From positions 47,175 through 111,174 of the forward strand of contig CACJDW010000001.1 of NCBI GenBank assembly GCA_902592275.1: a stretch of DNA of 64,000 nt. The letters are read 5' to 3'. This document shows positions 7,836 to 25,370 of the stretch, piece after piece. The number at the start of each line of letters is the position of its first letter. The stretch's first letter is position 1. A program made the position numbers and the translations under genes. Below the pieces are notes generated by a model, which was not told the origin of the DNA, made no database searches, and saw only the letters and a program-made list of their open reading frames with translations. The stretch comes from an uncultured Pelagibacteraceae bacterium. GTDB lineage: Bacteria > Pseudomonadota > Alphaproteobacteria > Pelagibacterales > Pelagibacteraceae.

Positions 7836-8468
7836 ATGCACCTAATCCATCGTGGGATCATCAATAAAAATCACAAAGAAAACTTACTAAAATCTTTTCT
7901 ACAATCATTTAAAAAAGGATATGGAATTGAAACAGATATTCATGCAACAAAAGATGAAAAATTTATTTGTTTTCACGACTTTACTCTAAAGAGAATTTTT
8001 AAAGATAAATCTAGTATAAAAAATTTAAATTATTCAGATATTGAAAAAATAACTAAAAAAAAAATACCACTATTAAATGATATTCTTAAAGCATCAAAAA
8101 ATAAGTATTTTTTGTTTATTGAAATAAAACCATTTTTTTCGAAAAAAATCTTAAAAAAACTAGTAAGTGAAACTTCTGATTATTCTAAATGTGTATTTAT
8201 TTCTTTTAAACACAAAAATATTTATGACCTTTTAAAAATTAATAAAAAAATTAAAGTTGGACTTTCTTTTCATCCACCATCAAGTATTAAATCAATCATC
8301 AAAAAATCATTAAATAAAAATATAAATTGCTTAGTTTTAGATAAATCATATTTAGAAAATAAAAGTATAAAGAAGATTAATAAGGATAAGTATTTTTATA
8401 CAATCAAAACTAAATCTGAGTTTAAAAAATATAATAAAGAAAATAATCTTATTTTTGAAAATTTATAA
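7836..8468 (+). CDS. Glycerophosphodiester phosphodiesterase (GDPD) family protein
   Basis: IHRG, EN, IETD, HD and IEIK motifs of the GDPD domain. Confidence 0.8.
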   Translation: MHLIHRGIINKNHKENLLKSFLQSFKKGYGIETDIHATKDEKFICFHDFTLKRIFKDKSSIKNLNYSDIEKITKKKIPLLNDILKASKNKYFLFIEIKPFFSKKILKKLVSETSDYSKCVFISFKHKNIYDLLKINKKIKVGLSFHPPSSIKSIIKKSLNKNINCLVLDKSYLENKSIKKINKDKYFYTIKTKSEFKKYNKENNLIFENL

Positions 8469-9593
8469 TTATCTTTTTAGATAATTTAATCTGCCAACTA
8501 TTTCGTCTCGATCCATATAATAACCTTGCAGATGCCTATGACCAGAATTTGGATTAAATTCAGTTCTACCATGAAGAACTCTTCTATTGTTAAATGAAAA
8601 AATATCACCAGGCTCTAATCTGAAATTAATTTGATATTTTGGATCGTGAAGAAGATTTCCAAATCTATGATGAGCTTTGTAAGCTTTTTCCATAACTTCA
8701 GGGCTACAATCTAATACATCCATAGTTGCAACACTAAATCTTACATCATTAAAATCTCCATCTTTAGTTAAAGTTATTGCTGGAGCATGAAAATGTCTGT
8801 GCGCTTCTTGCGTATAATCCTTATCTTTAAACTTAAAAGGAACATTAACTAACGTATCAAATATTTCTTTTTCATTTTCTCTTAAATAATCGGCAACTTT
8901 AAACGCATCTATTGCTGAAGAATTTCCCCCTTCTGCAGAATTTATAAGACAATGAAGAAACTGATACCCTGGAGGATTTTCAAACCAAGGAAGATCCATG
9001 TGATTTCTCAATGCATGAGCTGTATAAGCAGAATTATTTGGTTTTGGAATATTAATTACTTCAAACGGAGTTTTAAAAAAAGTTTCTCGTGTATGACTTA
9101 TACGATTTAAAACTTTTAATGCGGAGTTTGTTTCAACAGGTGCATTTTTAACAATTGAAATGCCTGTATGATGTAAGAGCTCTAGCCATTTAATCAATCC
9201 TTCTTCAGAATTCATTATTTCATCATGATCAATTTGAATAGAAGCTAAATTGTTTTCTAATGAATTATCCCAAAGTGTGTATGGAGATAGATATTTTTTT
9301 TTATTATTAATTGTGTAGCAATTTTCTCTTAACCATTTAGGATCATAATGACTTGTGTGATCTCCCTCACTCCATTCGATTTCTAGTTTGCCATCTGAAC
9401 TCACTGAATAATTTTTAGGATTAATATTTTGGGAAACATTCAAAATATTAAACATTCTATGTCTTGAATCTTTATCATGTGCAGTTGGGCAATTATCTCT
9501 TAACCAAAGATAATTAAATTTGCTTTCTTCTCCATCGTTCCAAATAACTTTTAAATATGTAGAATTTTTCTCAAGCTTTGAAATTTCACTCAT
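8469..9593 (-). CDS. Gamma-butyrobetaine hydroxylase-like Fe(II)/2OG dioxygenase (TauD superfamily with N-terminal GBBH-like domain)
   Basis: WLRDNC N-terminal motif, HMD (HxD), QFLHC, NRRVLHGR, RHLQGYYMDRD. Confidence 0.8.
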   Translation of the reverse strand: MSEISKLEKNSTYLKVIWNDGEESKFNYLWLRDNCPTAHDKDSRHRMFNILNVSQNINPKNYSVSSDGKLEIEWSEGDHTSHYDPKWLRENCYTINNKKKYLSPYTLWDNSLENNLASIQIDHDEIMNSEEGLIKWLELLHHTGISIVKNAPVETNSALKVLNRISHTRETFFKTPFEVINIPKPNNSAYTAHALRNHMDLPWFENPPGYQFLHCLINSAEGGNSSAIDAFKVADYLRENEKEIFDTLVNVPFKFKDKDYTQEAHRHFHAPAITLTKDGDFNDVRFSVATMDVLDCSPEVMEKAYKAHHRFGNLLHDPKYQINFRLEPGDIFSFNNRRVLHGRTEFNPNSGHRHLQGYYMDRDEIVGRLNYLKR

Positions 9594-9721: not shown

Positions 9722-10738
9722 ATGAAGTTTTTAAAAAGATTAACTATCTCAATTTTCCTTTTATCATCTTTAGTTGTTAGTACTGCTAATGCAGGTGACT
9801 GTAAGGCTAGATTGGGAGATTTCGACTGGAGTAGTGCGAACATCCATACTGCAATCACACAGTTTATTCTTGAAAAAGGATATGGTTGTGAGGTTTCAGT
9901 AACTAAAGGAAGTACTACACCTATCATGGCTGCACACTACGATAAACAATTAGATGTTATTACTGAAGTTTGGTACGACAATATTATTGCTAACTATGAA
10001 CCACATGAACAAGCTGGTACAATTCAAAATATTGGAGTGAACACACCAGACTCGCAACAAGCGTTTTATGTTGATAAGGCAACAGCTGATAAATACAACT
10101 TAAAATCTGTAGAGGATATGAAAGATCCAAAAATAGCGGCGCTATTTAAAGATCCAGAAGATCCATCTAAAGGTAGAATGACTAGCTGTATTTCTGGCTG
10201 GACTTGTTACACAGTTAATATGGTTAAACAAATAGAGTATGGTTTAGACAAATACTATACTAACTTTGATCCAGGTTCTGGTGGTGCATTGGATGCTGCT
10301 ATCGCTGGTGCTTTCGCTAAGAAAAAACCTATCTTTACTTACTACTGGGCACCAACAGGTTTAATGGGAAAAGTTGAACTTGTTAGACTAAAAGAACCTG
10401 CTTTTGATGCTGATTGCTGGAATAAAATGTCTGCAGTTGTAGAAGACATTAAAGCAAACGGTCCTGATGCTTATAAAAAAAGTTGTGCTTGTGAATATAG
10501 AGATATGGCTTTAACAAAGTCTGTTTTAACTGATTGGGCAAAAGCGCACCCAGCAGAAACTGAGTTTTTAAAGAAATACACTATTCCAACAGCTACTGTT
10601 AACAAAATGTTAGCGTTCTACGAAGATGAGTCGGATGGTGACATGGAATTAACTGCTAAGGAGTTTTTAAAAACAGAATCAATGTGGAAAAGCTGGGTTC
10701 CAGCTGATGTAGCTTCTAAAGTTACTGCTGCATTGTAA
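9722..10738 (+). CDS. proX: Glycine betaine/choline/carnitine-type ABC substrate-binding protein
   Basis: Signal peptide; DWSS, GYGC, EVW, CISGWTC, YYWAPT motifs of the OpuAC/ProX family. Confidence 0.8.
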   Translation: MKFLKRLTISIFLLSSLVVSTANAGDCKARLGDFDWSSANIHTAITQFILEKGYGCEVSVTKGSTTPIMAAHYDKQLDVITEVWYDNIIANYEPHEQAGTIQNIGVNTPDSQQAFYVDKATADKYNLKSVEDMKDPKIAALFKDPEDPSKGRMTSCISGWTCYTVNMVKQIEYGLDKYYTNFDPGSGGALDAAIAGAFAKKKPIFTYYWAPTGLMGKVELVRLKEPAFDADCWNKMSAVVEDIKANGPDAYKKSCACEYRDMALTKSVLTDWAKAHPAETEFLKKYTIPTATVNKMLAFYEDESDGDMELTAKEFLKTESMWKSWVPADVASKVTAAL

Positions 10739-10755
10739 TCTATAATTAAATTTTG

Positions 10756-10782
10756 AAAGAGCCCTTTTGCGAGGGCTCTTTT
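10756..10782 (+). terminator. Hairpin/terminator between the SBP and permease genes
   Basis: AAAGAGCCCT-loop-AGGGCTCTTT followed by a T-rich tail. Confidence 0.75.
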
Positions 10783-10807
10783 ATTATTAGGATTAAAAAT
10801 TCATTTA

Positions 10808-11833
10808 ATGGATATAAAAAGAAATAAAAAACTATTTTTTAATATAGGTCTTCTAGTCTTCTTTGTTTGGCTACTAATAATTAGTTATAGCTCTTCAAAA
10901 AGAAAACCTGATAACATTGGTGAATTACTAAACGATTTTTCTTGGCTACAAAAATGGCCCAAATGGTTAGACCTTCCATTAATGAAGTGGATAAATATTG
11001 GTTTTAAAAAATTAAATGAAACTTATGGTTTTATTTTTGAAGCAATAAATAATTTTTTACTAGCAATGCTGATGGCTTTAAAAAATTTTTTAATATTAGC
11101 TCCATGGCCAGCTGTAGTGTTAGGGGTTACAGTTATAGCTTATTTTGCAAGTGGAAGAAAAATAAGAACAACTGTATTTGTTGGTTTTTGCACTTTCTTT
11201 ATTGGCTTTTTACATCCAATATTTTGGCAAAAAGCTATAGAAACCACAGCCATAATGTTAATAAGTATTTTTCTTTGTTTGGTATTTGGAATGCCAGTGG
11301 GAATTTTAATGTCTAGAGCTGAAAGGATAAGAAACAAAATACTCCCAGTTCTTGACTTAATGCAAACTATTCCAGCATTTGTATATTTAATTCCTGGAAT
11401 AATGCTTTTTGGATTAGGTGCTGTTCCAGCAATTATTGCTACATTTATTTATGCAGTACCTCCTTTGGTCAGACTAACAGATCTAGGAATAAGACTTGTA
11501 GATAAAGAGGTAATTGAAGCAGCAGATGCTTTTGGTGCAAGTAAAAAACAAAAATTATGGGGTGTGCAAATGCCATTAGCGTTACCCAATATTATGCAAG
11601 GTATAAACCAATGTACAATGATGGCTTTATCTATGGTGGTTATTGCATCAATGATTGGAACAAGGGGTTTAGGTGACGAAGTTCTGCTAGGTTTACAGCA
11701 GCTAAATGTTGGTAGAGCTGCAGAAGCAGGAATTGCGATAGTGCTTTTAGCTATCGTGCTTGATAGAATAACTCAATCTTACGGAGAAACTTTACAAGAA
11801 AGACGAGCTCCAGAAAAAAAGAAAGGTAAATAA
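10808..11833 (+). CDS. proW: Glycine betaine/proline ABC permease
   Basis: LDLMQTIPAFVYLIP, EAADAFGAS (EAA loop), GINQCTMMALSMVV. Confidence 0.9.
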   Translation: MDIKRNKKLFFNIGLLVFFVWLLIISYSSSKRKPDNIGELLNDFSWLQKWPKWLDLPLMKWINIGFKKLNETYGFIFEAINNFLLAMLMALKNFLILAPWPAVVLGVTVIAYFASGRKIRTTVFVGFCTFFIGFLHPIFWQKAIETTAIMLISIFLCLVFGMPVGILMSRAERIRNKILPVLDLMQTIPAFVYLIPGIMLFGLGAVPAIIATFIYAVPPLVRLTDLGIRLVDKEVIEAADAFGASKKQKLWGVQMPLALPNIMQGINQCTMMALSMVVIASMIGTRGLGDEVLLGLQQLNVGRAAEAGIAIVLLAIVLDRITQSYGETLQERRAPEKKKGK

Positions 11834-12858
11834 TGTCTAAAATAGAGATTAAAAATGTTTACAAAATTTTTGGAAACAATCCTCAGTCTGTAATGCCGAT
11901 GGTAAAAGATGGTGCCAACAAAGAAGAGGTTTTAGAACAAACTGGACATACAGTTGGACTTGATAATGTTTCATTGAATATTGAGGAAGGCGAAACGTTT
12001 GTATGTATGGGTCTTTCAGGATCAGGAAAATCTACACTAATTAGACATCTTAACAGACTGATTGATCCAACTGATGGTGAAATTTTAGTTGAAGGAACAA
12101 ATGTAATGTCATTCAACAAAGAACAGCTTATTGATTTTAGAAGACACAAAATGAGCATGGTGTTTCAAAGATTTGGTTTATTTCCTCACAAAACTGTTTT
12201 GCAAAACGTTGGTTATGGTTTGGAAATGCAGGGCAAGCCCGAAGATGAAAGAGACAGAACTGCTATGGAAAAAATTGAAGCTGTTGGCTTAACTGGTTTT
12301 GAAAATCAATTTCCCAATCAATTATCAGGTGGTATGCAACAAAGAGTTGGTTTAGCAAGAGCACTTGCAACCGATAGCGACATCATGTTGATGGATGAAG
12401 CGTTTAGTGCTTTAGATCCTTTAATTAGAAGTGATATGCAAAAACAATTACTTGATCTTCAATCAGAATTGAAAAAAACCATCGTATTTATTACTCATGA
12501 TTTAGATGAGTCATTAAGACTTGGAGATCATATTGGAATATTAAATGCTGGTAAATTAGTTCAAGTTGGAACACCGGTTGATATCATAATGAACCCAGCA
12601 GATGATTATGTAAAAGCATTCGTTAAAGATGTAAATAGAGCAAAAGTAATAAAAGCTAAAGTAGTTATGAAAAAAACTGAAGAAGCAAATGAAATTGATA
12701 AATCTAATTTAATAAAAGTTAATGAAGATCAATTTATAGAAGAATTTTTACCTCAAATTGTTTGTTCAAATTCAAACTGTGAGGTTGTTGATAAAAGTGG
12801 AAATGTAAAAGGTTATATATCAAATAAAGAACTACAGACATCACTAACAAAATCTTAA
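11833..12858 (+). CDS. proV: Glycine betaine/proline ABC ATP-binding protein
   Basis: GLSGSGKS, LSGGMQQRVG, MDEAFSALDPLIR. Confidence 0.9.
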   Translation: MSKIEIKNVYKIFGNNPQSVMPMVKDGANKEEVLEQTGHTVGLDNVSLNIEEGETFVCMGLSGSGKSTLIRHLNRLIDPTDGEILVEGTNVMSFNKEQLIDFRRHKMSMVFQRFGLFPHKTVLQNVGYGLEMQGKPEDERDRTAMEKIEAVGLTGFENQFPNQLSGGMQQRVGLARALATDSDIMLMDEAFSALDPLIRSDMQKQLLDLQSELKKTIVFITHDLDESLRLGDHIGILNAGKLVQVGTPVDIIMNPADDYVKAFVKDVNRAKVIKAKVVMKKTEEANEIDKSNLIKVNEDQFIEEFLPQIVCSNSNCEVVDKSGNVKGYISNKELQTSLTKS

Positions 12859-13650: not shown

Positions 13651-14045
13651 TTCGAAAACCTTTTATACTTTGGGAGTTTATCAGTAATTTTATAAAAATC
13701 TGATTTAGTACCAACAAATATATTTCTCATCGTCTTAAGACCTGTTTTTCCATTAAACATACCCGCAGCTATTGATACATTGTCTGTGTTTTTAAATTTA
13801 AAAAAAATACTAGCCCCACATTTATTGCAAAATCCTCTTTTTGCACTACTGGATGATTTAAACCATTTGAGAGTTTTTTTATTTATAAATTTAATATCTT
13901 TATCTTTAACATTAGAATAAGCACCATAAATACCATGGGTTTTTCTACATTGAATACAATGACAATTTGAAACATTTCTATGTTCACCACTAGTTTTAAA
14001 CTTTACTCCTTTACATAAACAACTAGCTGTTAAAGTTTTTTTCAT
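13647..14045 (-). CDS. GFA/CENP-V family Zn protein
   Basis: CLC, CHCIQC and FCNKCG cysteine pattern. Confidence 0.82.
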   Translation of the reverse strand: MKKTLTASCLCKGVKFKTSGEHRNVSNCHCIQCRKTHGIYGAYSNVKDKDIKFINKKTLKWFKSSSSAKRGFCNKCGASIFFKFKNTDNVSIAAGMFNGKTGLKTMRNIFVGTKSDFYKITDKLPKYKRFSN

Positions 14046-14989
14046 TATCTTCTAATTTTATTTTCGTATTTTTTTCTTAATTTTTGAAGATCAACTAAAT
14101 ACTGATCTCTTATATTTGATATCATTGCAACCGATTTACCTTTGGCTTGTTTTGCTGTTCCAGAAATAAGTCTTGATGATAATTTATTTGATAATTTTGG
14201 TGCTTTTAACTTTGTCCAAGGTAACTTTAAAGCAGGTCCAAATTGCTCTAACATATGTTTCATTCCTGCTTTTCCACCTGCAAGGTGAAAAGTTAAAAAT
14301 GTACCCATTAACGACCATCTTAATCCTGGACCATCTTCAATTGCCCTATCTAATTCCTCCGTAGTTGCATACCCCTCATTAATTATATGTAAACCTTCTC
14401 TCCATAATGCTTCTTGCAATCTATCTGATAAATAACCAGGTAATTCATTTTTTACCATAATTGGATTCATAGAAATCGATTCATAAAATTTTTTAGCTAA
14501 ATTTAAATTTTTTCTTAAAGTTCTCTTACCTGGAACAATTTCTACAGCAGGCAATAAATAAACAGGATTAAACGGGTGTCCAATTATACCTCGCTCTGGA
14601 TTTTTGCATTTTGAATAAATTCTTGTTGGGAGCAAACCTGAAGAGCTTGAAGAAATTATAGAATTTGGTTTTGCATGCTTTCCAATTTTATTCATCAGTT
14701 TAGTTTTTAAAGAATAGTTTTCAGTTGCACATTCCTGAATAAAGTCTGCTTCTTTTAACGCCTGTTCTATTGAAGTAAAAAAATAAAAATTTTTAAGATT
14801 TAGTTTTTTTTTGTTAAAAAGTTTTTTTACAAATGGCCATGTTCTTTTTATTTCGGATATTAAATTTTTTTTTAACTTGATATCCTTATCAAATGCATAA
14901 ACAATTTTGTTATGAGCTAAACAACGTATGATCCACCCTGCTCCAATTACACCTGTTCCAATTACAGCAACTTTTTTAATATTTTGCAT
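14045..14989 (-). CDS. lcdH: L-carnitine dehydrogenase (3-hydroxyacyl-CoA dehydrogenase family)
   Basis: GTGVIGAGW, HPFNPVYLLP, DRLQEALWRE, GPGLRW, QFGPALKLPWTKL; next to BKACE and thioesterase genes. Confidence 0.8.
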   Translation of the reverse strand: MQNIKKVAVIGTGVIGAGWIIRCLAHNKIVYAFDKDIKLKKNLISEIKRTWPFVKKLFNKKKLNLKNFYFFTSIEQALKEADFIQECATENYSLKTKLMNKIGKHAKPNSIISSSSSGLLPTRIYSKCKNPERGIIGHPFNPVYLLPAVEIVPGKRTLRKNLNLAKKFYESISMNPIMVKNELPGYLSDRLQEALWREGLHIINEGYATTEELDRAIEDGPGLRWSLMGTFLTFHLAGGKAGMKHMLEQFGPALKLPWTKLKAPKLSNKLSSRLISGTAKQAKGKSVAMISNIRDQYLVDLQKLRKKYENKIRR

Positions 14990-15876
14990 TACTTGTGTTT
15001 AACAAGTTTTAACTTCTCTCTTGTTTCTGCAGGTGTCATTGTTGTTGCACCTAGATCTTCAACAATTCTAAGTGCTTTTTCAACTAGCTGAGCATTTGTT
15101 GCTAGTTTGCCTTTAGATAAATACAAATTATCTTCTAAACCCACTCTTGGATTACCACCCATAATTACTGTTTGTGCTACGAATGGCATCTCATTTTTCG
15201 AAATTGCAAAGCCTGACCACACACCTTCTTTTGGCATAATATCTTTCATTGCTTGCATTGCTAATGGAGTAGCTGGCGCTCCCCATGGAATTCCTAAACA
15301 CATTTGAAACATTGGAGGATCATCTAACAATCCTTCTTTATACAGTTGTGCTCCAAACCACATATTTCCTAAATCAAATGCTTCTATTTCTGGTTTTACT
15401 TTAATTTCTTTTAATCGTTTTGCAGCTTTTCTTAAATCGTTTGGAGTATTAACCGTTATAACTGAACTATCACCAAAATTTAAAGTTCCACAATCTAGTG
15501 TACAAATTTCAGGTAAAAATTGTTCAGCATTAGCAATTCTTTCCATAACATTTGCCATATCAGTCATTGGTCCAAACTCTAACGGGTCTTTGCCTTGACC
15601 AATGTCTAAATCCCCACCCATTCCAGTTGTTAAATTCAAAATAACATCCGTATCACTTGAACGAACTCTATCTACAACTTCTTTATATAATTCTAACCTC
15701 CTGCTTGGTCTTCCATCTTCTTCTCTTACGTGAATATGTGCTATTGCAGCTCCTGCCTTCGCAGCTTCAATTGCCGCTGTTGCAATTTGTTCTGGTGTTT
15801 TTGGTAAATCTGGATGCTTACTTGCTGTGTCTCCTGACCCAGTTACAGCACACGATATGAATACCTTGTTGTTCAT
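14989..15876 (-). CDS. Beta-keto acid cleavage enzyme (BKACE/Kce family), probable 3-dehydrocarnitine cleavage enzyme (CdhC-like)
   Basis: CAVTG, AHIHVR Zn motif, TLDCGTLNFG, RVGLEDN. Confidence 0.82.
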   Translation of the reverse strand: MNNKVFISCAVTGSGDTASKHPDLPKTPEQIATAAIEAAKAGAAIAHIHVREEDGRPSRRLELYKEVVDRVRSSDTDVILNLTTGMGGDLDIGQGKDPLEFGPMTDMANVMERIANAEQFLPEICTLDCGTLNFGDSSVITVNTPNDLRKAAKRLKEIKVKPEIEAFDLGNMWFGAQLYKEGLLDDPPMFQMCLGIPWGAPATPLAMQAMKDIMPKEGVWSGFAISKNEMPFVAQTVIMGGNPRVGLEDNLYLSKGKLATNAQLVEKALRIVEDLGATTMTPAETREKLKLVKHK

Positions 15877-15923: not shown

Positions 15924-16391
15924 ATGTCATTTCACATAACAGATCAAACAATCAAAAAAGAATGGACCGATTACAATAATCACATGAACATGGCTTACTA
16001 TGTCCTGATTTTTGATCAGACTTGGGAGATAATTCTTGAAAAATTTAAGATGGGTGAAAAATCTGCAAAGGATACTCAACGAAGTACTATGGTTGTTGAA
16101 ACCCGAACTACTTATGATGGAGAAGTTAAAGAAGGAGATCAGGTTGAAATTGTTTTAAGCTTTTTTGATCATGATAAAAAGAGACTACATTTCAAAATGG
16201 AAATGATTGAAAAATCATCAAAAAAATTATCTGCAACTATCGAAATGTTAGCTCTCTATATTGATCTTAGTAAAAGAAAAGTTACAGAATTTGAGGAAGA
16301 AAAAATTAAAATTATGGACGACTTTATAAATGAAAATAAAAATGAATTTAATTCTGATAATTTAACAATTATAGGAAAACTTAAAAAATGA
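15924..16391 (+). CDS. Hot-dog thioesterase, probable betainyl-CoA thioesterase (CdhB-like)
   Basis: WTDYNNHMNMAYY and DKKRLH motifs; divergent from the carnitine genes. Confidence 0.72.
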   Translation: MSFHITDQTIKKEWTDYNNHMNMAYYVLIFDQTWEIILEKFKMGEKSAKDTQRSTMVVETRTTYDGEVKEGDQVEIVLSFFDHDKKRLHFKMEMIEKSSKKLSATIEMLALYIDLSKRKVTEFEEEKIKIMDDFINENKNEFNSDNLTIIGKLKK

Positions 16392-17218
16392 TTGATGTAA
16401 AATTATTATCAGGGGCATTAGGTGCAGAAATAAATGGAATTAATTTAACTGATGTTTCAGATGAAAATTTTAAAAAAATAAATGATCTATTGTTAGAACA
16501 CAAAGTTATTTTTTTTAGAGATCAACCTTTAACCACAGAACAGCATATTGCATTAGCTGCAAAGTTTGGCCCATTAGAAACACATGCATATGTTAAAGGC
16601 CGAAGTGAATTTCCTGAAATTGTAAGAATAATTAAAAAACCTGATGAAAAAACACAATGGGGCGAAGGTTGGCACTCAGATGTTAGTTACAATAAAAAGC
16701 CAACAAAGGCAGTTGTTTTAAAATCAATTAAAATTCCTCCAGTTGGAGGGGATACTGTTTTTTCAAATATGGAACTTGCATGGAAAACATTAGATGATGA
16801 GATGAAAAATAAGATTAAAGATAAAAAAGCTGTTCATTCATCAAGGGGTGGAGGGTTTTTCCTAGATAAATATAAAGCGATGGAGAGCAATGGAAATATG
16901 GATGAATACTCAAATACTCATCCAATTTTAAGAACTCATCCCGAAACAGGTAAAAAAATTCTTTTTGTTAACTGGACCTATACAAAAGAAATAGTTGGCA
17001 TGGATAAAAAAGAAAGTGATGAGATATTAAATTATTTATTTGAACATCAAGCTAGATTAGATCTTACTTGTAGATTTAAATGGACAGAAAATGCAATTGC
17101 GATCTGGGATAATAGAAGTGTTCAACACTATGCGATCGCTGATTTTTATCCAAATAAAGGACTTGGTTTTGAAAGAATAATGGATCGTATTGCTATTGAA
17201 GGGGATCATCCACAATAA
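16388..17218 (+). CDS. TauD/TfdA family Fe(II)/2OG dioxygenase
   Basis: LGAEI, VIFFRDQ, WHSD (HxD), GGDT, HPETG, WDNRSVQH. Confidence 0.88.
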   Translation: MIDVKLLSGALGAEINGINLTDVSDENFKKINDLLLEHKVIFFRDQPLTTEQHIALAAKFGPLETHAYVKGRSEFPEIVRIIKKPDEKTQWGEGWHSDVSYNKKPTKAVVLKSIKIPPVGGDTVFSNMELAWKTLDDEMKNKIKDKKAVHSSRGGGFFLDKYKAMESNGNMDEYSNTHPILRTHPETGKKILFVNWTYTKEIVGMDKKESDEILNYLFEHQARLDLTCRFKWTENAIAIWDNRSVQHYAIADFYPNKGLGFERIMDRIAIEGDHPQ

Positions 17219-17221
17219 TAA

Positions 17222-17758
17222 ATGAAAATAATTTATAAAATCATTTCAAATTTTATAAATAACAAATCTTTGTACATTGGTGAAAAAGTGACTATGTCGG
17301 AACATATGATTCAATCCGCCATGCTTGCTGAGAAAGCTAAGTGTAACGATGATTTAATTTGTGCATGTTTACTACATGACTATGGTCATTTTCTTTTAGA
17401 AGATCCTGATGAATTAGTTAAAAATAAATTAGACGGAGAACATGAAAATATTGGATATCAGTATCTTAAAAAATTTTTTGGACAAAAAATTGTTGAGCCA
17501 ATTAAATATCATGTTTTAGCTAAACGTTATTTAGCTAGAGACAAAAAATATTTTGATTATTTATCAAATGCGTCAAAAATTAGCCTTAAGTTACAAGGAG
17601 GAGTTCTAAATGCTAAAGAGAGTAAAGAATTTGAAAATAAATCTTACTTTAAGCCATCAATTCTTCTTCGAAAATTTGATGAGGCTGCAAAAAGAACTGA
17701 CATTAAAATGAAATCTATTCATGACTATGAAAAGTTGTTAAGTTCCAAACTTATATGA
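17222..17758 (+). CDS. HD-domain diiron oxygenase, PhnZ/TmpB-like
   Basis: YIGE..EH, LLHDYGH, EHE, HVLAKRYL, S..SL.LQGG, R.FD..AK, i.e. the PhnZ-type metal/substrate residue pattern. Confidence 0.8.
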   Translation: MKIIYKIISNFINNKSLYIGEKVTMSEHMIQSAMLAEKAKCNDDLICACLLHDYGHFLLEDPDELVKNKLDGEHENIGYQYLKKFFGQKIVEPIKYHVLAKRYLARDKKYFDYLSNASKISLKLQGGVLNAKESKEFENKSYFKPSILLRKFDEAAKRTDIKMKSIHDYEKLLSSKLI

Positions 17759-19338
17759 ATTTCGATTATTTAATAATTGGTGCTGGAAGTGCAGGCTGTG
17801 TACTTGCAAATCGATTAACAGAAAACAATCAAAACAATGTAGCAATATTTGAAGCTGGGAAACCCAGTGATATTTGGAAAGTTAACATGCCACTTGCGAT
17901 TTTATATACAATGCATGATCCAAAATATAACTACAAATATTATTCAGAACCAGAACCTCATTTACATAATAGAAGATTATTTTGTCCAAGAGGAAAAATG
18001 ATTGGTGGATGTTCTGCTCATAATGGAATGGTATTTGTAAGAGGAAACCCAAATGATTATCAAAGGTGGGCATCTTTTGGATTGGATGATTGGTCGTATG
18101 AAAAAGTCCTTCCTTATTTTAAAAAAATTGAAACCTGGTCTGAGGGAGAAAATGAATATCGTGGTGGTACAGGAATATTGCCAGTAAACCAATCTAAAAA
18201 TAAAAATCCTTTATTCAAAGCGTTTGTCGATTCAGCTGGCGAGGCTGGTTATAAAATAAACAACGACATGAATGGTAAAGAACAAGAAGGTTTTGGAATG
18301 TACGATGTTACTATTCATAATGGTGAAAGAGCAAGTGTATCTAAATATTATTTAAATCCTGCCAAAAAAAGAAAAAACCTAAAAGTATTCACAGAAGCTT
18401 TTGTTGAGAGAATTATATTTGATGGAAAAAAAGCAATTGGAATTGAAGTAAAAATCAAAAATAAAATCGAAAAGATTTATGCTAATAAAGAAGTGATTTT
18501 AAGTGGAGGTGCAATTAATTCACCACAATTACTAATGCTTTCTGGAATTGGTCCAAGCCAACACTTAAAAGACAAGGGAATTGATGTTGTTCATAACTTA
18601 GAGGGTGTTGGAAAAAACTTACAAGATCATCTAGAAACCTACGTTCAGCAGGAATGTAAAACCAAAGATACTTTATATTCATACGTTAATAAACTTAATA
18701 TGATAAGGATTGGTATTCAGTGGTTTTTAAATAGAAGTGGTCCCTGCTCTACTTCTTTCTTAGAAGCTGGAGGTTTTTGTAAATCATCTCCAGAAAGAGA
18801 ATATCCAAATATTCAATTTCATTTTTTTCCTGCTTTCGTAATTGATCATGGATTAGTTGATCCAGACAGGCATGGTTACCAATTACATGCGAGTCCAAAC
18901 CATCCAAAAAGTAGAGGTCATATAACTTTAAACAGTTCAGACCCTTATGATTATCCAAAAATTCAATTTAATTATCTAGAACATGAAGATGATTTAAAGC
19001 AAACCATAGAATGTATTCATGTAGCTAGAAAAATTTTGGGGCAAGACTCTCTGAAGCCTTTTGCGGGTAAAGAAATTGGACCAGGAGAACATGCTCAAAC
19101 AAATGAGGTATTTGAAGAATATATTAGATCTAAAGCTGAGACTGCTTATCACCCATCATGCACTTTAAAAATGGGTGTGGATAATATGGCTGTTGTAGAT
19201 CAAAAACTAAAAGTTCATGGTGTTGAAAATCTAAGAATAGTTGATGCGTCTGTAATGCCTGAAATTACAAGTGGAAACCTAAATGCCCCAACATTAATGA
19301 TTGCTGAAAGGGCCTCAGATTTTATTCTTAATTCATGA
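17755..19338 (+). CDS. betA: Choline dehydrogenase (GMC oxidoreductase)
   Basis: GAGSAG FAD motif, PRGKMIGG, GAINSPQLLMLSGIG, NLQDH, AYHPSCT, GNLNAPT. Confidence 0.82.
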   Translation: MNFDYLIIGAGSAGCVLANRLTENNQNNVAIFEAGKPSDIWKVNMPLAILYTMHDPKYNYKYYSEPEPHLHNRRLFCPRGKMIGGCSAHNGMVFVRGNPNDYQRWASFGLDDWSYEKVLPYFKKIETWSEGENEYRGGTGILPVNQSKNKNPLFKAFVDSAGEAGYKINNDMNGKEQEGFGMYDVTIHNGERASVSKYYLNPAKKRKNLKVFTEAFVERIIFDGKKAIGIEVKIKNKIEKIYANKEVILSGGAINSPQLLMLSGIGPSQHLKDKGIDVVHNLEGVGKNLQDHLETYVQQECKTKDTLYSYVNKLNMIRIGIQWFLNRSGPCSTSFLEAGGFCKSSPEREYPNIQFHFFPAFVIDHGLVDPDRHGYQLHASPNHPKSRGHITLNSSDPYDYPKIQFNYLEHEDDLKQTIECIHVARKILGQDSLKPFAGKEIGPGEHAQTNEVFEEYIRSKAETAYHPSCTLKMGVDNMAVVDQKLKVHGVENLRIVDASVMPEITSGNLNAPTLMIAERASDFILNS

Positions 19339-20285
19339 CACAATCCCAAAATAACCCTAGGGGTATTGTCTTTATTTTATTAGGAATGGCAACTTTTTCC
19401 ATTCAAGATGCTTTAATTAAATTTATCTATGAAGATGTAGCTTTATATGAATTATATTTTGGGAGAACACTTGTAGCTTGCATCTTGTTAATAATTTATC
19501 TCAAAATTACTAATCAAAAAATAAATTTAAAAAGTCATTATCCTTTTTTAACAATTTTAAGAGTAATATGTTTCTTTTTTGGGTTCAGTTTTTTTTATAT
19601 CTCTCTTACTTACATGTCTCTGGCAATGGCGAATGCACTTTTCTTTTCCAGTCCTTTTTTCATATCCATATTGGCAACTATTTTTTTAAAAGAGAAAGTT
19701 GGTATAAGAAGATGGATTGCAATTTTTGCTGGTTTTTTTGGAGTGTATATTGTTTTAAATCCAGATTTTAATGATTTTGATTATATGAAATTAGCACCTG
19801 TTGCCTGTGCTTTATGCTACGCAATTTCAATGACAATTACTAAAGTAACCTCCGATAAAGATAATGTTTATACTCAAATGTTACATTTATATTTTGGTGC
19901 ACTATTAATTAGTATTTTGTTTTTTATTTTCACAGGGAAAGGTCAATTCAATAATTTTAGCGATGAAACTTTTCAGTTTATTTTTAGAGAATGGTTTACA
20001 AATCCTTCATATTCATGGCCTTTTATAATTGCCATGGGCTGCATTGGTGCATTTGCATTTTATTTTGTTTTTAATGCCTACAGTATAGCTTCCCCATCTG
20101 TAGTCTCGCTATATGAGTATTCATTAATAATATGGTCAATTATCACTGGATATTTAATATTTGATAACATTCCAACTGTTAGAACTTTTATAGGTGTTTC
20201 GATAATTATAGGTGCTGGTGTGTATATTTATTTTAGGGAAAAGGTCAAAGATCAACTGATTGTGACAGACACTCCAAATAGATGA
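19335..20285 (+). CDS. DMT/EamA family transporter
   Basis: Multi-TM; FSSPFF..LKEKVGIRRW signature. Confidence 0.85.
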   Translation: MTQSQNNPRGIVFILLGMATFSIQDALIKFIYEDVALYELYFGRTLVACILLIIYLKITNQKINLKSHYPFLTILRVICFFFGFSFFYISLTYMSLAMANALFFSSPFFISILATIFLKEKVGIRRWIAIFAGFFGVYIVLNPDFNDFDYMKLAPVACALCYAISMTITKVTSDKDNVYTQMLHLYFGALLISILFFIFTGKGQFNNFSDETFQFIFREWFTNPSYSWPFIIAMGCIGAFAFYFVFNAYSIASPSVVSLYEYSLIIWSIITGYLIFDNIPTVRTFIGVSIIIGAGVYIYFREKVKDQLIVTDTPNR

Positions 20286-21247
20286 AAAACTATATCCCAA
20301 CAATCAATATTTCAGCATTAATCAAAAATAATTTTAATACAAAAAAAGCCAATCAAACAATTAAACAAATAGAAAAAGCTTGTGTCAATGTTGGTTTTTT
20401 CCAGATAACAGGTCACGGTATCAATTTAAAAGAAATAAAAAAAACTTGTGATGTTGGCAATAAATTTTTTAATTCTTCTAAAATTAATAAGCAAAAATTA
20501 TCCCCTAAGAAATGGAATAAAAAAAATAAAAATCTTTATAGAGGATACTTTCCAAATGACGTGAATGGTAAAGAAGGTTTAGATATTGGTGATTTAAAAG
20601 TTACAAAAAATTATTCAGCAAAAATTAAAAACCAATATATTGAACACTTAGATCTAAGCAAAAGTATTGATAAATCATCGATAAAAATTTTAGAAAAATA
20701 TTTTGATAATTTATTTTCATTAAGTGAAACTTTATTCAAAAGTATAATTAAACTTTATAAAAAAAATCCTGATATTTCTAAAATGGCTTTCTCAAGATTA
20801 AAAACATTAAGCACTTTAAGATTTAATTATTATCCAAACCAGACAAAGCCAGTTGAAATATCAAAACAAGATGGGGTTGCTCTTGGATGTGAAACTCATG
20901 TTGATAGTGGAGTGTTTACTGTACTTTATCAAGATAGAAAAGGTGGGCTACAGGTGCAAAATAGAAAAACAAAAAAATGGTATGATGTTCCATTTAATAA
21001 AAAGGCTTTGGTTGTAAATACTGGAAGAGCATTAGAATTTCTTAGTAAAGGTAAATTTAAAGCAACAAATCATAGAGTACTATGGAATAAAACTAAGAGA
21101 CTCTCTGTTCCTTTTTTCTTTGAACCTTCCTATAATTTCAAAATGAACCAATCATTTTTAAATGGAAGTAAATGCAAAAATAATGGTCTAATTTATGAGA
21201 AATTTCTTAACAAATCCTTAAAGAAATTTATTGAATATCAACGTTAG
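20282..21247 (+). CDS. Isopenicillin-N-synthase-like Fe(II)/2OG oxygenase
   Basis: IPTINI, GFFQITGHG, YRGY, LRFNYYP, HVD (HxD), HRV, RLSVPFF (RxS). Confidence 0.85.
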   Translation: MKNYIPTINISALIKNNFNTKKANQTIKQIEKACVNVGFFQITGHGINLKEIKKTCDVGNKFFNSSKINKQKLSPKKWNKKNKNLYRGYFPNDVNGKEGLDIGDLKVTKNYSAKIKNQYIEHLDLSKSIDKSSIKILEKYFDNLFSLSETLFKSIIKLYKKNPDISKMAFSRLKTLSTLRFNYYPNQTKPVEISKQDGVALGCETHVDSGVFTVLYQDRKGGLQVQNRKTKKWYDVPFNKKALVVNTGRALEFLSKGKFKATNHRVLWNKTKRLSVPFFFEPSYNFKMNQSFLNGSKCKNNGLIYEKFLNKSLKKFIEYQR

Positions 21248-21280
21248 TAATAATAAGGTTTGAATATAAAGCGATACATA

Positions 21281-21349
21281 ACTCGTCGTTAAATTCAAAA
21301 ATTTACGAAAGTGGGATCGGTCGTCTTTAAATTAATTTTTAAAGGAGGC
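21281..21349 (+). promoter_or_regulatory. Candidate structured 5' leader with SD-sequestering hairpin
   Basis: Two hairpins foldable by eye: 21281-21312 and 21320-21349; the second pairs GTCGTCTTTAAA with TTTAAAGGAGGC, covering the GGAGG SD. Confidence 0.35.
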
Positions 21350-21352
21350 TTT

Positions 21353-22519
21353 ATGAACTTTGGATATTTTTGTAACACTACTAATTGGGATAAAAAACCT
21401 TATACGCAACTTTTAGATGAAGCTAGAGAGATCACTGAATATTGTGATCAAAATAATTGGAATTCTATTTGGTATACCGAACATCATTTTAATCATGAAG
21501 GAATGGAGTCGTGCACCAATCCACTAATGATGTGCACTGATGCTGCTGCAAGAACTAGAAATATTCGTTTAGGGCAGGCTTGTAACGTAATTACATTTCA
21601 TAATCCTATAAGACTTGCAGAAGATATTGCTACCCTTGATCAAATGTCAAAAGGAAGAGTTGAAGTGGGTATTGGTAGAGGAGTTTATGGTAGAGAAGCA
21701 ATCAACATGAATAAAGAAGCTGACTTAAAAGACCAAGCAAAAAATTTTAGACTATTTTCAGAAACATTAGACATAATGAAAAAAGCATGGTCTGAAGACT
21801 TTTTTTCTCATCAAGGAGAATTTTATACCTACCCATCTCCTAATTTTATTTGGCAACACGACATGAGTCCTCCAAAAGAAAATGTTGTCGATTTAAAAAC
21901 AAATGAATTAAAACAAATATCTGTATTACCAAAACCTTATCAAAAACCTTTTCCACCAATTTCTCAAGTAGTTGATGGAGAAAGATCAATTCAGTGGGCA
22001 GCAGAAAATGGGCTTAATACAATTATGTGGATACCAACTGTAAAAGCTTTGAAAAAAAGATTTGAAATTTATAAAGATGCAAAATCTAAAGCTGAAAATA
22101 GAGATGTACCACTAGGGGAAGGTATTAGTTTGGTTAGAGATATGTTTGTTGCAGAAACTATGGAAGAGGCTGAAAAAATGGCTGGAGAACATATTGTAAA
22201 TTATATGAGATGGGTTTGTCATTGGAGAGGATTGGGAAATCATATGGATCCAGATGAAAAATTACCAGAGACAAAAAATAAATTGGATTTATTAAATTAT
22301 GAATTTCTTCATAAAAGAAATCTATTGTTTGGAACACCTGAGTTTGTAATTGAAAAAATAAAAGAACTTCAACAAGAATTAAATCTTCAAAATTTACAAG
22401 TCTGGTCTAACTTTCCAGGTATTAAACACGAAGATTGTATGAGAAGCATCAAATTATTTACAGAAGAAGTAATTCCAAATATAAAACCGATAGACACAAA
22501 CATTCAAAGAGCTAGTTAG
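21353..22519 (+). CDS. Luciferase-like (LLM) flavin-dependent monooxygenase
   Basis: WYTEHHF, IRLGQ, NPIRLAED..LDQMSKGRVEVGIGRG, PKPYQKP; start moved to ATG 21353 after the GGAGG SD. Confidence 0.88.
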   Translation: MNFGYFCNTTNWDKKPYTQLLDEAREITEYCDQNNWNSIWYTEHHFNHEGMESCTNPLMMCTDAAARTRNIRLGQACNVITFHNPIRLAEDIATLDQMSKGRVEVGIGRGVYGREAINMNKEADLKDQAKNFRLFSETLDIMKKAWSEDFFSHQGEFYTYPSPNFIWQHDMSPPKENVVDLKTNELKQISVLPKPYQKPFPPISQVVDGERSIQWAAENGLNTIMWIPTVKALKKRFEIYKDAKSKAENRDVPLGEGISLVRDMFVAETMEEAEKMAGEHIVNYMRWVCHWRGLGNHMDPDEKLPETKNKLDLLNYEFLHKRNLLFGTPEFVIEKIKELQQELNLQNLQVWSNFPGIKHEDCMRSIKLFTEEVIPNIKPIDTNIQRAS

Positions 22520-22522
22520 TAA

Positions 22523-23107
22523 ATGAATTTAAAACTTAGAAAATTTGCAAAATTTGTTGATAAAACTTTTATTGAAGGTGGAAAAAAAGCTAAAGAACCT
22601 GTTCTGTTAGTTTCTGTTGCAGCTGTTATAGAAAATCCTTGGGCCGGAAAAGGTTTTGTAGAAGATTTAAAACCAGAAATATTAGATCTTGCGCCTCAAT
22701 TAGGAGATATTTTGGTTCCAGAGTTAACAAAAGAAATTGGATCGGGTGAAAAAATTTTAGCCTATGGAAAAGCTGCTATGGTTGGATTAAATGGTGAGAT
22801 AGAACACGCGTCTGCATTTATTCATACTTTAAGATTTGGAAATAAATTTAGAGATGCTGTTGGGGGAACTTCCTATTTAAGTTTTACAAATACCAGAGGT
22901 CCTGCAGGTGCAAAAATTTCAATTCCCATGATGCACAAAACTGATGCTGGATTAAGACCTTTTTATCTTACTCATGAATTTACAATTCATGATGCCCCTA
23001 ATGAAGATGAAATAGTTGTTGCTATTGGAGGCGCTCCAACTGGACGAGCTCATGCAAGAACGGGTGATAGATATCAAGACATGAAAGAGATGGGCATTGA
23101 TAACTAA
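22523..23107 (+). CDS. DUF1185 / 'amino acid synthesis' family protein (TgnF-like)
   Basis: NPWAG.GFVEDL, YGKAAMVG..GEIEH, DAP..DEI, GRAHAR.GDR. Confidence 0.75.
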   Translation: MNLKLRKFAKFVDKTFIEGGKKAKEPVLLVSVAAVIENPWAGKGFVEDLKPEILDLAPQLGDILVPELTKEIGSGEKILAYGKAAMVGLNGEIEHASAFIHTLRFGNKFRDAVGGTSYLSFTNTRGPAGAKISIPMMHKTDAGLRPFYLTHEFTIHDAPNEDEIVVAIGGAPTGRAHARTGDRYQDMKEMGIDN

Positions 23108-23110
23108 TTG

Positions 23111-23896
23111 ATGTCTTATAATTTTGATACAGATCAAAATCATTATTATTTTAATAACAAAAATTCTTTACCAATAATTTTTATTCATGGCGTTGGTTTA
23201 AATCAGCAAATGTGGAAACCACAAATTGAATTTTTTAAGGACAATTCATTTTTAACTTACGATCTATTAGGACATGGAAAAACACCTTTTAAAGAGCCAA
23301 ATTTATCAATGGAAAATTTTACTGATCAATTATCAAATTTAGTAACTAACCTAAAGATAGAGAAATTTAATTTAATTGGCTTTTCTATCGGATCTTTGAT
23401 TGCAATTGAATTTGCCTCAAAATATGAAAATTACTTAAATTCCTTAACTCTAATATCCACTACATATCAAAGGACAGCTGAAGAAAGACAAAATGTAATT
23501 GATAGAGTAAATTTAGCAAAAAAAAATATGCCAATATCTCAAATGGCAATGAAGAGATGGTTTTCAGATGAGTACCTTGAGCAAAACCCTGAATTATACG
23601 ATGAGTTTATGAAAATTCTTAATAAGAAAGGAATTGATCAAGAAAATTTTATAAAAGCTTATGAAGTATTTGCAAACTATGAGGACAATCTTGAAAACAT
23701 AAAAAATATTAAAACAAATACTTTGATAATAACTGGATCAGATGATCCAGGATCTACACCTGATATGTCAAAAAATTTAAATAAAGATATACAAAATTCA
23801 ACATATCTTGAAATAAAAAATGGAAAACATTTATGCACTATTGAATATGCAGAAGAAGTAAATAATGCAATAATGAAACATATAAATAATGCCTGA
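23111..23896 (+). CDS. Alpha/beta hydrolase (TgnD-like)
   Basis: HGVGL, YDLLGHG, GFSIG nucleophile elbow, Asp and His (GKHL) of the triad. Confidence 0.85.
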   Translation: MSYNFDTDQNHYYFNNKNSLPIIFIHGVGLNQQMWKPQIEFFKDNSFLTYDLLGHGKTPFKEPNLSMENFTDQLSNLVTNLKIEKFNLIGFSIGSLIAIEFASKYENYLNSLTLISTTYQRTAEERQNVIDRVNLAKKNMPISQMAMKRWFSDEYLEQNPELYDEFMKILNKKGIDQENFIKAYEVFANYEDNLENIKNIKTNTLIITGSDDPGSTPDMSKNLNKDIQNSTYLEIKNGKHLCTIEYAEEVNNAIMKHINNA

Positions 23897-25370
23897 GTTA
23901 GAAAAATATCAAATGTTTATAAATGGTCAGTGGGTAGACTCTGATACAAAAAAAACTTTTGAAACTTTAAATCCAGAAAATAATAAGCCTTGGGCTGTAG
24001 TTCCTGAAGCTAGTGCAAAAGATGTTGATAGAGCTGTAAAAGCTGCACAAAAAGCTTTTGAAGGTGAATGGCCAAAAATGCTTGCAAGAGATAGAGCAAA
24101 ATATTTAAGAGCGATTGGAAATAAGCTCAGAGAAAATTCTGAATTATTAGGAAAGATTGAAACGATTGATACAGGAAAACTGTATAGAGAAACTTATCAA
24201 CAAGCAAAATATATTGCAGAATATTATGATTACTACGCAGGTTTAGCTGACAAAGTTGAAGGAACAGTTCTTCCAATAGATAAACCAAATATTCAAGCAA
24301 TCACAACAAGAATTCCAATAGGTGTTATAGCTGCTATCATTCCTTGGAATTCTCAAATGTTTTTAACTGCAACAAAAGTTGCTCCTGCTTTAGCTATGGG
24401 TAATACCGTAGTAATTAAATGTTCTGAATTAGCACCAGCAACTATGTTTGAGTTTGCAAAGTTAGTTGAAGAAACTGGAATACCAAAAGGGGTAATAAAT
24501 GTAGTTTCTGGTTTTGGTGATCCATGTGGTAAAGCTTTAACTACTCACAACTTAGTTGAGAAAGTAGCTTTTACAGGAGGTCCAGAAACAGCAAGACATA
24601 TAATTAGAAATTCTGCAGAAAATTTATCTGAGGTAAGTTTAGAGTTAGGTGGAAAAAGTCCTGTAGCTGTTTTTGATGATGCTAAACAAGAAAATGCAAT
24701 TAATGGAATAACTGCTGGAATATTCGGAGCAAGTGGTCAAAGTTGTATAGCAGGTTCAAGGCTGTACTTACAAAAAGGAATTTATAATGAGTTTCTAGAT
24801 AAATTAGCATCAAGAGCAGAAAAAATTAAAATAGGTGCACCAATGGATACTGATACTGAAATGGGTCCCTTAAGTAACTTCAAACAATTAGAAGTAATAG
24901 AAAAAAATATTAAATTAACAGTTGAACAAGGTGGAAAAATTAAATGTGGTGGTAAAAGACATCCATTTTCAAATGAAGGTTATTATTTTCCTCCAACAAT
25001 TATTGAGTGTGAAAATCATAATTTACCAGCTGCTGAGAATGAACTTTTCGGTCCTGTATTATCGGTCATGAAATTTGATACTGAAAAAGAGGTAATAGAA
25101 TTAATGAACGACAACCAATATGGGCTTTCTTCAGGTGTTTATACTAGTGATCTAGCAAGAGGAATGAGAGTATCTAATGCTATCCGAGCAGGAATAACAT
25201 TTGTAAATACTTATAGATTAATTTCTCCTTCAGCTCCATTTGGAGGTATCAAGGATAGTGGATATGGAAAAGAGGCTGGAATTGACTCTATAAAAGACTA
25301 CACTAGGGTAAAAACAACTTGGTTTTACACTTCAGATGAGCCAACGCTTGATCCTTTTTCAATAAGATAA
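23889..25370 (+). CDS. Aldehyde dehydrogenase (TgnC-like)
   Basis: IIPWNSQ, FTGGPETA, LELGGKSP, GQSCIAGSR, ELFGP. Confidence 0.9.
   Translation: MPELEKYQMFINGQWVDSDTKKTFETLNPENNKPWAVVPEASAKDVDRAVKAAQKAFEGEWPKMLARDRAKYLRAIGNKLRENSELLGKIETIDTGKLYRETYQQAKYIAEYYDYYAGLADKVEGTVLPIDKPNIQAITTRIPIGVIAAIIPWNSQMFLTATKVAPALAMGNTVVIKCSELAPATMFEFAKLVEETGIPKGVINVVSGFGDPCGKALTTHNLVEKVAFTGGPETARHIIRNSAENLSEVSLELGGKSPVAVFDDAKQENAINGITAGIFGASGQSCIAGSRLYLQKGIYNEFLDKLASRAEKIKIGAPMDTDTEMGPLSNFKQLEVIEKNIKLTVEQGGKIKCGGKRHPFSNEGYYFPPTIIECENHNLPAAENELFGPVLSVMKFDTEKEVIELMNDNQYGLSSGVYTSDLARGMRVSNAIRAGITFVNTYRLISPSAPFGGIKDSGYGKEAGIDSIKDYTRVKTTWFYTSDEPTLDPFSIR

Follow-up and report, generated by a model that had tools for sequence, protein, structure and literature searches.

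What does a dioxygenase of the taurine dioxygenase (TauD) family do immediately in front of a predicted carbon-phosphorus (C-P) bond-cleaving oxygenase and a choline dehydrogenase? This question is raised by a 64,000-nucleotide stretch of DNA from an uncultured Pelagibacteraceae (SAR11) bacterium (assembly GCA_902592275.1, contig CACJDW010000001.1, positions 47,175 to 111,174; hereafter the window). Exactly as an earlier note on this DNA had described, a tauD-like gene is followed after a 3-nt gap by an HD-domain oxygenase gene, the end of which overlaps the start of betA by ATGA. We confirmed the three open reading frames, the gap and the overlap in the window sequence:

16388-17218, + strand: tauD-like gene; 276 amino acids (aa), TauD/RdpA-fold Fe(II)/2-oxoglutarate (2OG) dioxygenase of a SAR11 clade
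17222-17758, + strand: HD gene; 178 aa, PhnZ/TmpB-type HD diiron oxygenase, an optional cassette gene
17755-19338, + strand: betA-type choline dehydrogenase (GMC flavoprotein); 527 aa, 751.6 on PRK02106 (cut-off 605) and 687 on TIGR01810 (cut-off 732)

Two readings had been offered for this arrangement, one in which the TauD-like protein is a third type of phosphonate hydroxylase that serves the HD enzyme, and one in which it is a sulfonate or sulfate dioxygenase that yields betaine aldehyde. The interpretation holds in part. The arrangement itself recurs in 22 of 44 genomes carrying the tauD-like gene, and the second reading fits the evidence best. We give about an even chance to the proposal that the TauD-like enzyme makes betaine aldehyde by oxidising taurine betaine or choline-O-sulfate, with the HD protein as an accessory C-P oxygenase that delivers to the same pool. 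Its foundations are the fold, the conserved metal- and anion-binding residues, the loss of the residues that hold the amine of taurine, betA as a constant neighbour and a distribution independent of the HD gene.

In the proposed mechanism, the TauD-like enzyme would act on a trimethylammonio-ethyl sulfonate or sulfate and hydroxylate the carbon adjoining its sulfur group, and the product would collapse spontaneously, by analogy with TauD and AtsK, to betaine aldehyde and sulfite or sulfate. Betaine aldehyde could then be converted to glycine betaine by BetA, which has aldehyde activity, or by an aldehyde dehydrogenase encoded in the same gene island. Where present, the HD protein would feed the same betaine pool from a 1-hydroxyphosphonate.

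A TauD-fold pocket without the taurine amine network

The TauD-like protein is a member of the TauD/TfdA family (206.6 bits on PF02668, threshold 27). On the taurine dioxygenase equivalog NF007104 it scores 230.8, below the cut-off of 313, and its identity to E. coli TauD is 33%. Its predicted structure (pLDDT 92.5) matches RdpA/AAD-1 with Foldseek TM scores of 0.87-0.89 and TauD with 0.88. The relatives at 96-100% identity are Pelagibacter records, and the best full-length representatives outside the clade reach 42-47%.

To read the pocket we used an alignment of 111 distinct orthologues (20 duplicates removed), 72 of them followed by the HD gene, 25 by betA and 14 by neither. H96, D98 and H247 of the HxD...H triad and the 2OG arginine R263 are invariant. 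By alignment, H66, V99 and R267 fall in the anion site, and W91, G92, Y68, Y101, F158 and Y198 lie near the pocket. According to the accessible text of PMC9304159 and PMC12951627, the sulfonate-binding residues of E. coli TauD are His70 and Arg270, and those holding its amine are Asp94, Asn95 and Ser158. All 111 orthologues keep the equivalents of His70 and Arg270, H66 and R267, so that the anion-binding histidine and C-terminal arginine recognised earlier within the motifs ETHAY and RIMDR stand. On the amine side, D94/N95 are replaced by W91/G92 in every orthologue, S158 by Phe or Ala (position 157) in 107 of 111, and Y73 by V69. This set of replacements (W91, G92, Phe/Ala) is the change that would be expected for a methylated ammonium group.

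The motifs QWGEGWHSD and FVNWTY, also present, had suggested a cation cage of extra tryptophans, and this idea did not survive the alignment. W95 is an ordinary family tryptophan (W98 of E. coli TauD), and W196 of FVNWTY gives way to Ser in 28 of 111 orthologues (in 10 of the 72 that are HD-linked and 16 of the 25 that are HD-less), accompanied by F157A and T197M in both groups. W91 alone is invariant and has no Trp counterpart in E. coli TauD. The orthologues thereby show two co-varying variants, F157/W196/T197 and A157/S196/M197, each found with and without the HD gene, which may mark two pocket sizes. The invariant R80, considered as a phosphonate ligand, was given no weight; its counterpart in the alignment is a gap or V84 rather than I83 of the pocket.

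Genomic context brings in sulfur. An SdsA-type alkyl sulfatase is encoded two genes away from the tauD orthologue in 9 of the 10 sister-family loci, and one sister-clade metagenome locus (L288; G and L numbers are our handles for genomes and loci) runs proV-proWX-thiamine pyrophosphate enzyme-methyltransferase-tauD-alkyl sulfatase-Fe alcohol dehydrogenase-GMC oxidoreductase. Two other loci (L085 and L096) read BHMT-dimethylglycine dehydrogenase-tauD-(HD)-betA. The known route for choline-O-sulfate, described for Ruegeria in the accessible part of PMC4744692, uses the hydrolase BetC, and no BetC-type sulfatase (PF00884) was found in our assembly, which is 84% complete and does contain xsc, a gene for taurine. 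Both candidate substrates have been detected in one sample of North Pacific gyre particles, choline sulfate matched to a standard and taurine betaine putatively (bioRxiv 2024.07.18.604132, accessible text). Between the two, the context leans to the sulfate ester and the predicted pocket geometry to the sulfonate.

Are the tauD-like and HD genes coupled?

The two genes had been called directly coupled. We examined an even draw of 151 Pelagibacter genomes of at least 85% completeness (our own genome was included at 84%) and found betA in 63, this tauD in 44, this HD gene in 27 and tauD with HD in 22. Half of the tauD carriers (22 of 44) therefore lack an HD orthologue, and tauD and betA adjoin, judged by coordinates, in every one of these 22; betA is complete in 43 of the 44 carriers and cut by a contig end in the last. 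Thirteen of the HD-less carriers have no PhnZ-type match at E 1e-15; the single-contig genomes G096, G118 and G157 among them are also without a TIGR03276 match. In the other nine a PhnZ-like gene of about 40% identity lies elsewhere, unlinked. The two of these that we fetched (from G183 and G067), and also those of G095 and G018, have arsC and arsK as neighbours, and three of these four have phnCDE as well. In loci L047, L234, L235 and L236 a separate PhnZ-like gene (about 40% identity) has arsC on one side and an ArsK-like exporter gene on the other; phnCDE is near and often phnX, and no hydroxylase was seen adjoining it there.

TauD proteins with and without an HD neighbour reach 97-99.6% identity, and no column of the 111-orthologue alignment distinguishes the two groups. 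At the DNA level the HD gene behaves as a gene-sized indel of about 550 nt between flanks that are 96-99% identical (G170 against G159, G161 against G154); tauD alone (G156 against G081) and HD alone (G085 against G081) form further single-gene indels. On the TauD tree HD presence switches at least 10 times, against a shuffled mean of 22, so that it is also clustered by kinship. The HD gene also occurs without tauD, in the order thioesterase-HD-betA, in G085, G137 and G191, which belong to one lineage, and likewise in G011, which lies outside the draw of 151. Two of five apparent cases of this kind were rejected as artefacts, one of a contig end (G187) and one of a split gene (G076). Splits of tauD in G076 (L218) and of betA in G118 (L232) could be sequencing errors or decay.

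Among near relatives the two genes do travel together, HD following tauD in 66 of the 73 loci that reach 60% identity, a set biased to near relatives. Across island carriers their association is weak (odds ratio 3.0, p 0.10, with kin not independent), and in the sister family 10 of 24 genomes carry a tauD orthologue at 65-70% identity, none of them adjoining an HD gene. RNA-library contigs from four libraries cover the genes, and two span the tauD-HD junction; because such contigs reveal neither strand nor a single transcript, we did not use them as evidence.

An obligate cascade of the PhnYZ, TmpAB or SmaOX type would have its two genes inherited together, and the 22 tauD carriers without HD depart from this pattern. 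Because half of the tauD carriers lack HD, and because HD also precedes betA without tauD, the two are not an obligate pair, and obligate coupling is not supported. The HD gene is likely gained and lost as a single gene in a slot before betA. Since this slot takes genes one by one, position alone explains the adjacency. A second single-gene slot of the island lies before the thioesterase gene and varies in content, holding in some loci a class II aldolase, an HpcH/CitE-like lyase or both (L077, L107, L036 and L201-L216).

Several observations weigh against a sulfur-directed TauD-like enzyme with an independent HD accessory. Its nearest solved structures are the ether-cleaving RdpA/AAD-1 (191 bits), followed by PlaO1 and TauD (162 bits for TauD, 112-116 for AtsK/Rv3406), and the roles that we assign to its residues derive from alignment, not from coordinates. 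The alkyl sulfatase of the sister family is transcribed divergently, in genomes that are related to one another. A betA-like gene is found in only 2 of 80 sister-clade tauD loci and an HD gene in none of them, many of these loci being short. BetA has choline as its main substrate, and its adjacency does not show that it takes the product of the TauD-like enzyme. Finally, tauD, be it intact, split or truncated by a contig end, lies directly upstream in 24 of 27 HD carriers, and the single-contig genome G182 has tauD-HD-betA without any TmpA-like gene.

The HD oxygenase and its candidate hydroxylases

PhnZ/TmpB HD oxygenases are defined by the diiron motif H...HD...H...H...D and a YxxE loop (PMC8177086, accessible text). 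In the HD protein the corresponding H28, H52, D53, H74, H97, D153 and E21 are invariant, and Y18 nearly so, across 25 sequences. H56, K101, S118 and R150, identical to PhnZ and TmpB in alignments and invariant in the same set, are taken as the phosphonate-binding His/Lys/Ser/Arg of PhnZ. Its only sequence matches in the PDB are TmpB (114 bits) and PhnZ (95 bits), and all ten Foldseek matches of its model (pLDDT 91.2) at E 0.001 or better are PhnZ/TmpB structures (TM 0.86-0.91), so that both the motif set claimed for it and the fold were found. It scores below the cut-offs of TIGR03276 (169 against 214.6) and of the TmpB equivalog NF049941 (153.4 against 300), lacks the aromatic loop of TmpB and has no tmpA adjoining. 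Because the fold, the YxxE loop, the diiron motif and the phosphonate-site residues are kept, C-P cleavage is likely, and we regard the protein as a likely PhnZ/TmpB-type C-P oxygenase. Plasmid searches returned distant homologues only, for both the TauD-like and the HD protein.

A PhnZ-type enzyme had been expected to need a hydroxylase, which as a premise about neighbours is weak. HD homologues occur in 73 of 400 Alphaproteobacteria; among the 29 best loci, 17 have an adjacent BBOX-type gene (all 4 that were scored pass the TmpA cut-off) and 12 no hydroxylase within 1.5 kb, and a TauD-type gene accompanies the homologue in none of them. The nearest outside relative of this HD protein sits behind a TmpA above the cut-off. 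In two loci of other Alphaproteobacteria (L250 and L261), tmpA-tmpB lie directly upstream of BBOX and cdhC, inside a carnitine operon. For the protein studied here the candidates are the TauD-like protein, a second BBOX paralogue acting in trans, or no partner at all. The other genes around it in the island are:

6393-8468, + strand: aldehyde dehydrogenase (best on TIGR01804, 425.9 against 668.6) and glycerophosphodiester phosphodiesterase (PF03009)
8469-9593, - strand: BBOX-like dioxygenase (BBOX1); 313.8 on TIGR02409 and 280 on the TmpA model, both below cut-off
9722-12858, + strand: proXWV-type betaine ABC transporter; PF04069, TIGR01186 above cut-off
14045-15876, - strand: cdhA-like carnitine dehydrogenase (NF005471, 352.6 against 414) and cdhC-like beta-keto acid cleavage enzyme (PF05853, 313 bits)
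15924-16391, + strand: thioesterase (CdhB-like), first gene of the unit; PF13279, matching the C-terminal part of carnitine dehydrogenase PRK07531
19335-20285, + strand: EamA/DMT transporter; PF00892

BBOX1 had been judged closer to a true BBOX than to TmpA. TmpA binds its phosphonate through N187, N287 and R288 (PMC9296572, accessible text), and BBOX1 keeps N187 but has Val/Ala for N287/R288 (RFSVAT for RFNNR), in line with that judgement; its TmpA score falls short of the cut-off of 400 (NF049936). It groups with cdhC-linked BBOX proteins (support 0.95 in a midpoint-rooted tree) and also occurs in islands without the HD gene, and its best PDB match is TmpA (187 bits), above human BBOX (161 bits). 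Judged by these sequence features, it is probably the butyrobetaine hydroxylase of a carnitine route, not TmpA. The claim that no PhnY* is present holds in that no close PhnY was found in the assembly (5 of 6 PhyH proteins scanned, none above 31 bits where the cut-off is 500, on a model of Gimesia PhnY only, not of the original PhnY*), but it must be qualified by BBOX2, a second, TmpA-like BBOX paralogue on another contig of the same assembly (G000:C4:78577-79680; L142:1144-2247).

BBOX2 figures in the strongest alternative, to which we give clearly less than an even chance: the HD protein would be a TmpB fed in trans by BBOX2, or would act without a partner on natural 1-hydroxyphosphonates, with tauD uninvolved. 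BBOX2 scores 348 on the TmpA model, below the cut-off of 400, against 273 on BBOX; it keeps HTDNPYR and R288 but has Pro for N287. It is present in 23 of 27 HD carriers, and in G022 the HD gene lies one gene away from it. G083, the only one of the 151 genomes with a canonical TmpA (514 against the cut-off of 400; L362:1450-2592), has this HD as its sole PhnZ-type gene and no BBOX2 match; its TmpA gene adjoins an EamA gene, with no tmpB adjacent. The position of the nearest outside HD relative behind an above-cut-off TmpA points the same way. Against this, BBOX2 is found in 113 of 151 genomes, most of them without this HD (association p 0.22), and it tracks another HD protein, of 185 aa (G000:C2:180249-180806; L152:1222-1779), that is without equivalents of K101 and R150, the Lys and Arg of PhnZ. 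The two are both present in 104 and both absent from 19 of the 151 genomes; in genomes seen with three contigs or fewer (n=24) the counts are 13 and 11, and in 4 of 4 sister-family loci holding them they overlap or abut. Near-core in Pelagibacter and unlinked in this assembly, BBOX2 and the 185-aa HD protein likely form an uncharacterised two-step oxygenase pair. BBOX2 as a general partner of our HD protein is weakened by this distribution, and G182 has no BBOX2, canonical TmpA or second HD protein. G096 holds a broken copy of the 185-aa HD gene and no BBOX2. G191 and G137 (L360 and L361) carry an extra BBOX-family paralogue that scores best on the trimethyllysine dioxygenase model (258 against a cut-off of 268).

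The second alternative gives the TauD-like enzyme two activities: it would also hydroxylate trimethylammonio-ethyl phosphonate (TMAEP), the phosphonate isostere of taurine betaine, and the hydroxyphosphonate being stable, HD-bearing strains could cleave it to glycine betaine and phosphate. We consider this possible but doubtful. The upstream position of tauD in nearly all HD carriers, the gene content of G182 and the tie of BBOX2 to a different HD protein favour it, as does the precise insertion of HD behind a resident tauD in G161 and G170. The weak association among island carriers, the four thioesterase-HD-betA genomes, the lack of any distinguishing alignment column, the absence of the pairing from the 29 alphaproteobacterial HD loci and the 80 sister-TauD loci, and a slot that accounts for adjacency by position alone speak against it. 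A phosphonate-hydroxylating TauD-like enzyme, as first proposed, thus survives only as a second activity, not as the main job. Generalised, and held just as tentatively, the idea is that the TauD-fold enzyme would hydroxylate trimethylammonio-ethyl oxyanions whatever their heteroatom, sulfur substrates collapsing by themselves and the TMAEP product being cleaved by a plug-in HD protein. Both alternatives concern the HD protein, and oxidation of taurine betaine or choline-O-sulfate by the TauD-like enzyme is compatible with either.

Less probable is an RdpA-like ether cleavage, in which the alpha carbon of an O-alkyl choline carboxylate would be hydroxylated and choline released for BetA; the head group of the betaine lipid diacylglyceryl carboxyhydroxymethylcholine (DGCC) would presumably be one such compound. 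The best sequence and structure matches are indeed RdpA/AAD-1, Y198 (110 of 111 orthologues) aligns with RdpA Tyr221, a probable carboxylate ligand (a search listed no paper confirming this role), choline is the normal substrate of BetA, and the island encodes a glycerophosphodiester phosphodiesterase. However, the invariant H66 has no His counterpart in RdpA, to which the protein is only 34-36% identical, and the alkyl sulfatase neighbours point to sulfur. We therefore think this route improbable.

A dedicated phosphonate hydroxylase coupled obligately to the HD oxygenase is largely refuted and highly improbable: the 3-nt spacing in the window and the frequent adjacency in near relatives invite it, but tauD is intact in the 13 genomes without a PhnZ-type HD match, three of them single-contig, and never lies beside HD in the 10 tauD-carrying sister-family genomes. 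Least probable of all is an ordinary taurine dioxygenase, itself unlikely, with BBOX1 as the TmpA of a dispersed tmpAB, which H66, R267 and the PDB match of BBOX1 would allow but which the changed Y73, D94, N95 and S158 equivalents, the sub-cut-off TauD score, the presence of xsc and, for BBOX1, the missing N287/R288, the cdhC-linked grouping and the occurrence in HD-less islands all contradict.

The betaine island and known systems

The overlapping run is longer than first drawn, comprising thioesterase, tauD, HD, betA, EamA and a DIOX_N 2OG oxygenase. In addition to the junctions described above, thioesterase and tauD share an ATGA overlap at 16388-16391, betA and EamA overlap at 19335-19338, and EamA and the DIOX_N gene at 20282-20285. 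The PDB matches of the proXWV-type transporter are glycine betaine-binding proteins, and the aldehyde dehydrogenase of 6393-8468 is a candidate betaine aldehyde dehydrogenase. Farther out, window positions 20282-25370 hold a row of the DIOX_N 2OG oxygenase, a luciferase-like monooxygenase, a PF06684 protein, an alpha/beta hydrolase and an aldehyde dehydrogenase, a cluster reminiscent of trigonelline-type (Tgn) ring opening, for which the accessible descriptions of homABCD gave no match. Positions 210-4503 hold ABC transporter genes with doeA-like and eutA-like genes, the latter two below cut-offs, possibly an ectoine-type uptake and hydrolysis unit.

SAR11 are the most abundant bacteria of the ocean, and they depend on glycine betaine as a source of glycine and methyl groups. 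If our reading is right, 44 of 151 Pelagibacter genomes would encode an oxidative entry route for choline-O-sulfate or taurine betaine, and with it a sink for little-studied marine osmolytes, and the labels "taurine dioxygenase" and "BBOX(2)" would be corrected. If the heteroatom-indifferent version were true, about 30% of the sampled Pelagibacter genomes would carry a third phosphonate hydroxylase family and with it a new way of obtaining glycine betaine, sulfur and phosphate. In a literature search made mostly without subscription papers we found no description of an oxidative catabolism of choline-O-sulfate or taurine betaine, nor of a TauD-type phosphonate hydroxylase working with PhnZ; the primary TmpAB/PhnZ network analyses may mention tauD-HD neighbours. 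In one survey Pelagibacterales contributed 45% of marine phnZ sequences, read as 2-aminoethylphosphonate (2-AEP) catabolism (PMC9381506, accessible text). The betA-linked phnZ branch, which is without PhnY, probably acts on something other than 2-AEP. The island and the enzyme classes are already known; new are an uncharacterised, mislabelled clade of SAR11 dioxygenases with a substrate prediction, and its plug-in PhnZ/TmpB-type gene.

The closest known system is the glycine betaine island of Arctic SAR11 (17-20 genes, 17 of them tabulated in Table S4 of PMC12421898), which in the accessible material is the same island in the same gene order as the window; G157, G118 and G096 share that order. 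Its gene 15, labelled "BBOX(2)" and 834 nt long, lies directly before the choline dehydrogenase, and its visible 5' part matches this tauD by eye. The accessible part of the paper proposes no substrate for gene 15, and the HD gene is absent from the 17 tabulated genes, up to three extra genes of some genomes being untabulated. Unlike what the label implies, the TauD-like protein has no BBOX N-terminal domain, and the island is not confined to the Arctic clade.

With E. coli TauD and AtsK/Rv3406 the TauD-like protein shares the fold, the HxD...H triad, the 2OG arginine and the anion-binding His/Arg, and the predicted collapse of its product to an aldehyde is like theirs. It differs from E. coli TauD in the replaced amine network (D94/N95/S158/Y73) and in an invariant insertion before R263, and its gene belongs to a betaine catabolic island, not to a sulfur-starvation operon. 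RdpA/AAD-1 share the tyrosine at position 198, but RdpA is without the His66 equivalent.

On the phosphonate side, TmpA and TmpB of Leisingera caerulea convert TMAEP to glycine betaine and phosphate (PMC10574752, PMC8177086 and PMC9296572, accessible text). The HD protein shares with Leisingera TmpB the TmpB/PhnZ fold, the YxxE loop, the diiron ligands and the betaine context, but its neighbouring oxygenase is of the TauD/RdpA type, not the BBOX type. Its motif set and fold are likewise those of the PhnY*/PhnZ and Gimesia PhnY/PhnZ1 systems, from which it differs in having no PhnY-like gene nearby or detected in the assembly. The phnCDE-linked PhnZ-like proteins of SAR11 itself, at about 40% identity to this HD protein, are another branch of the same family.

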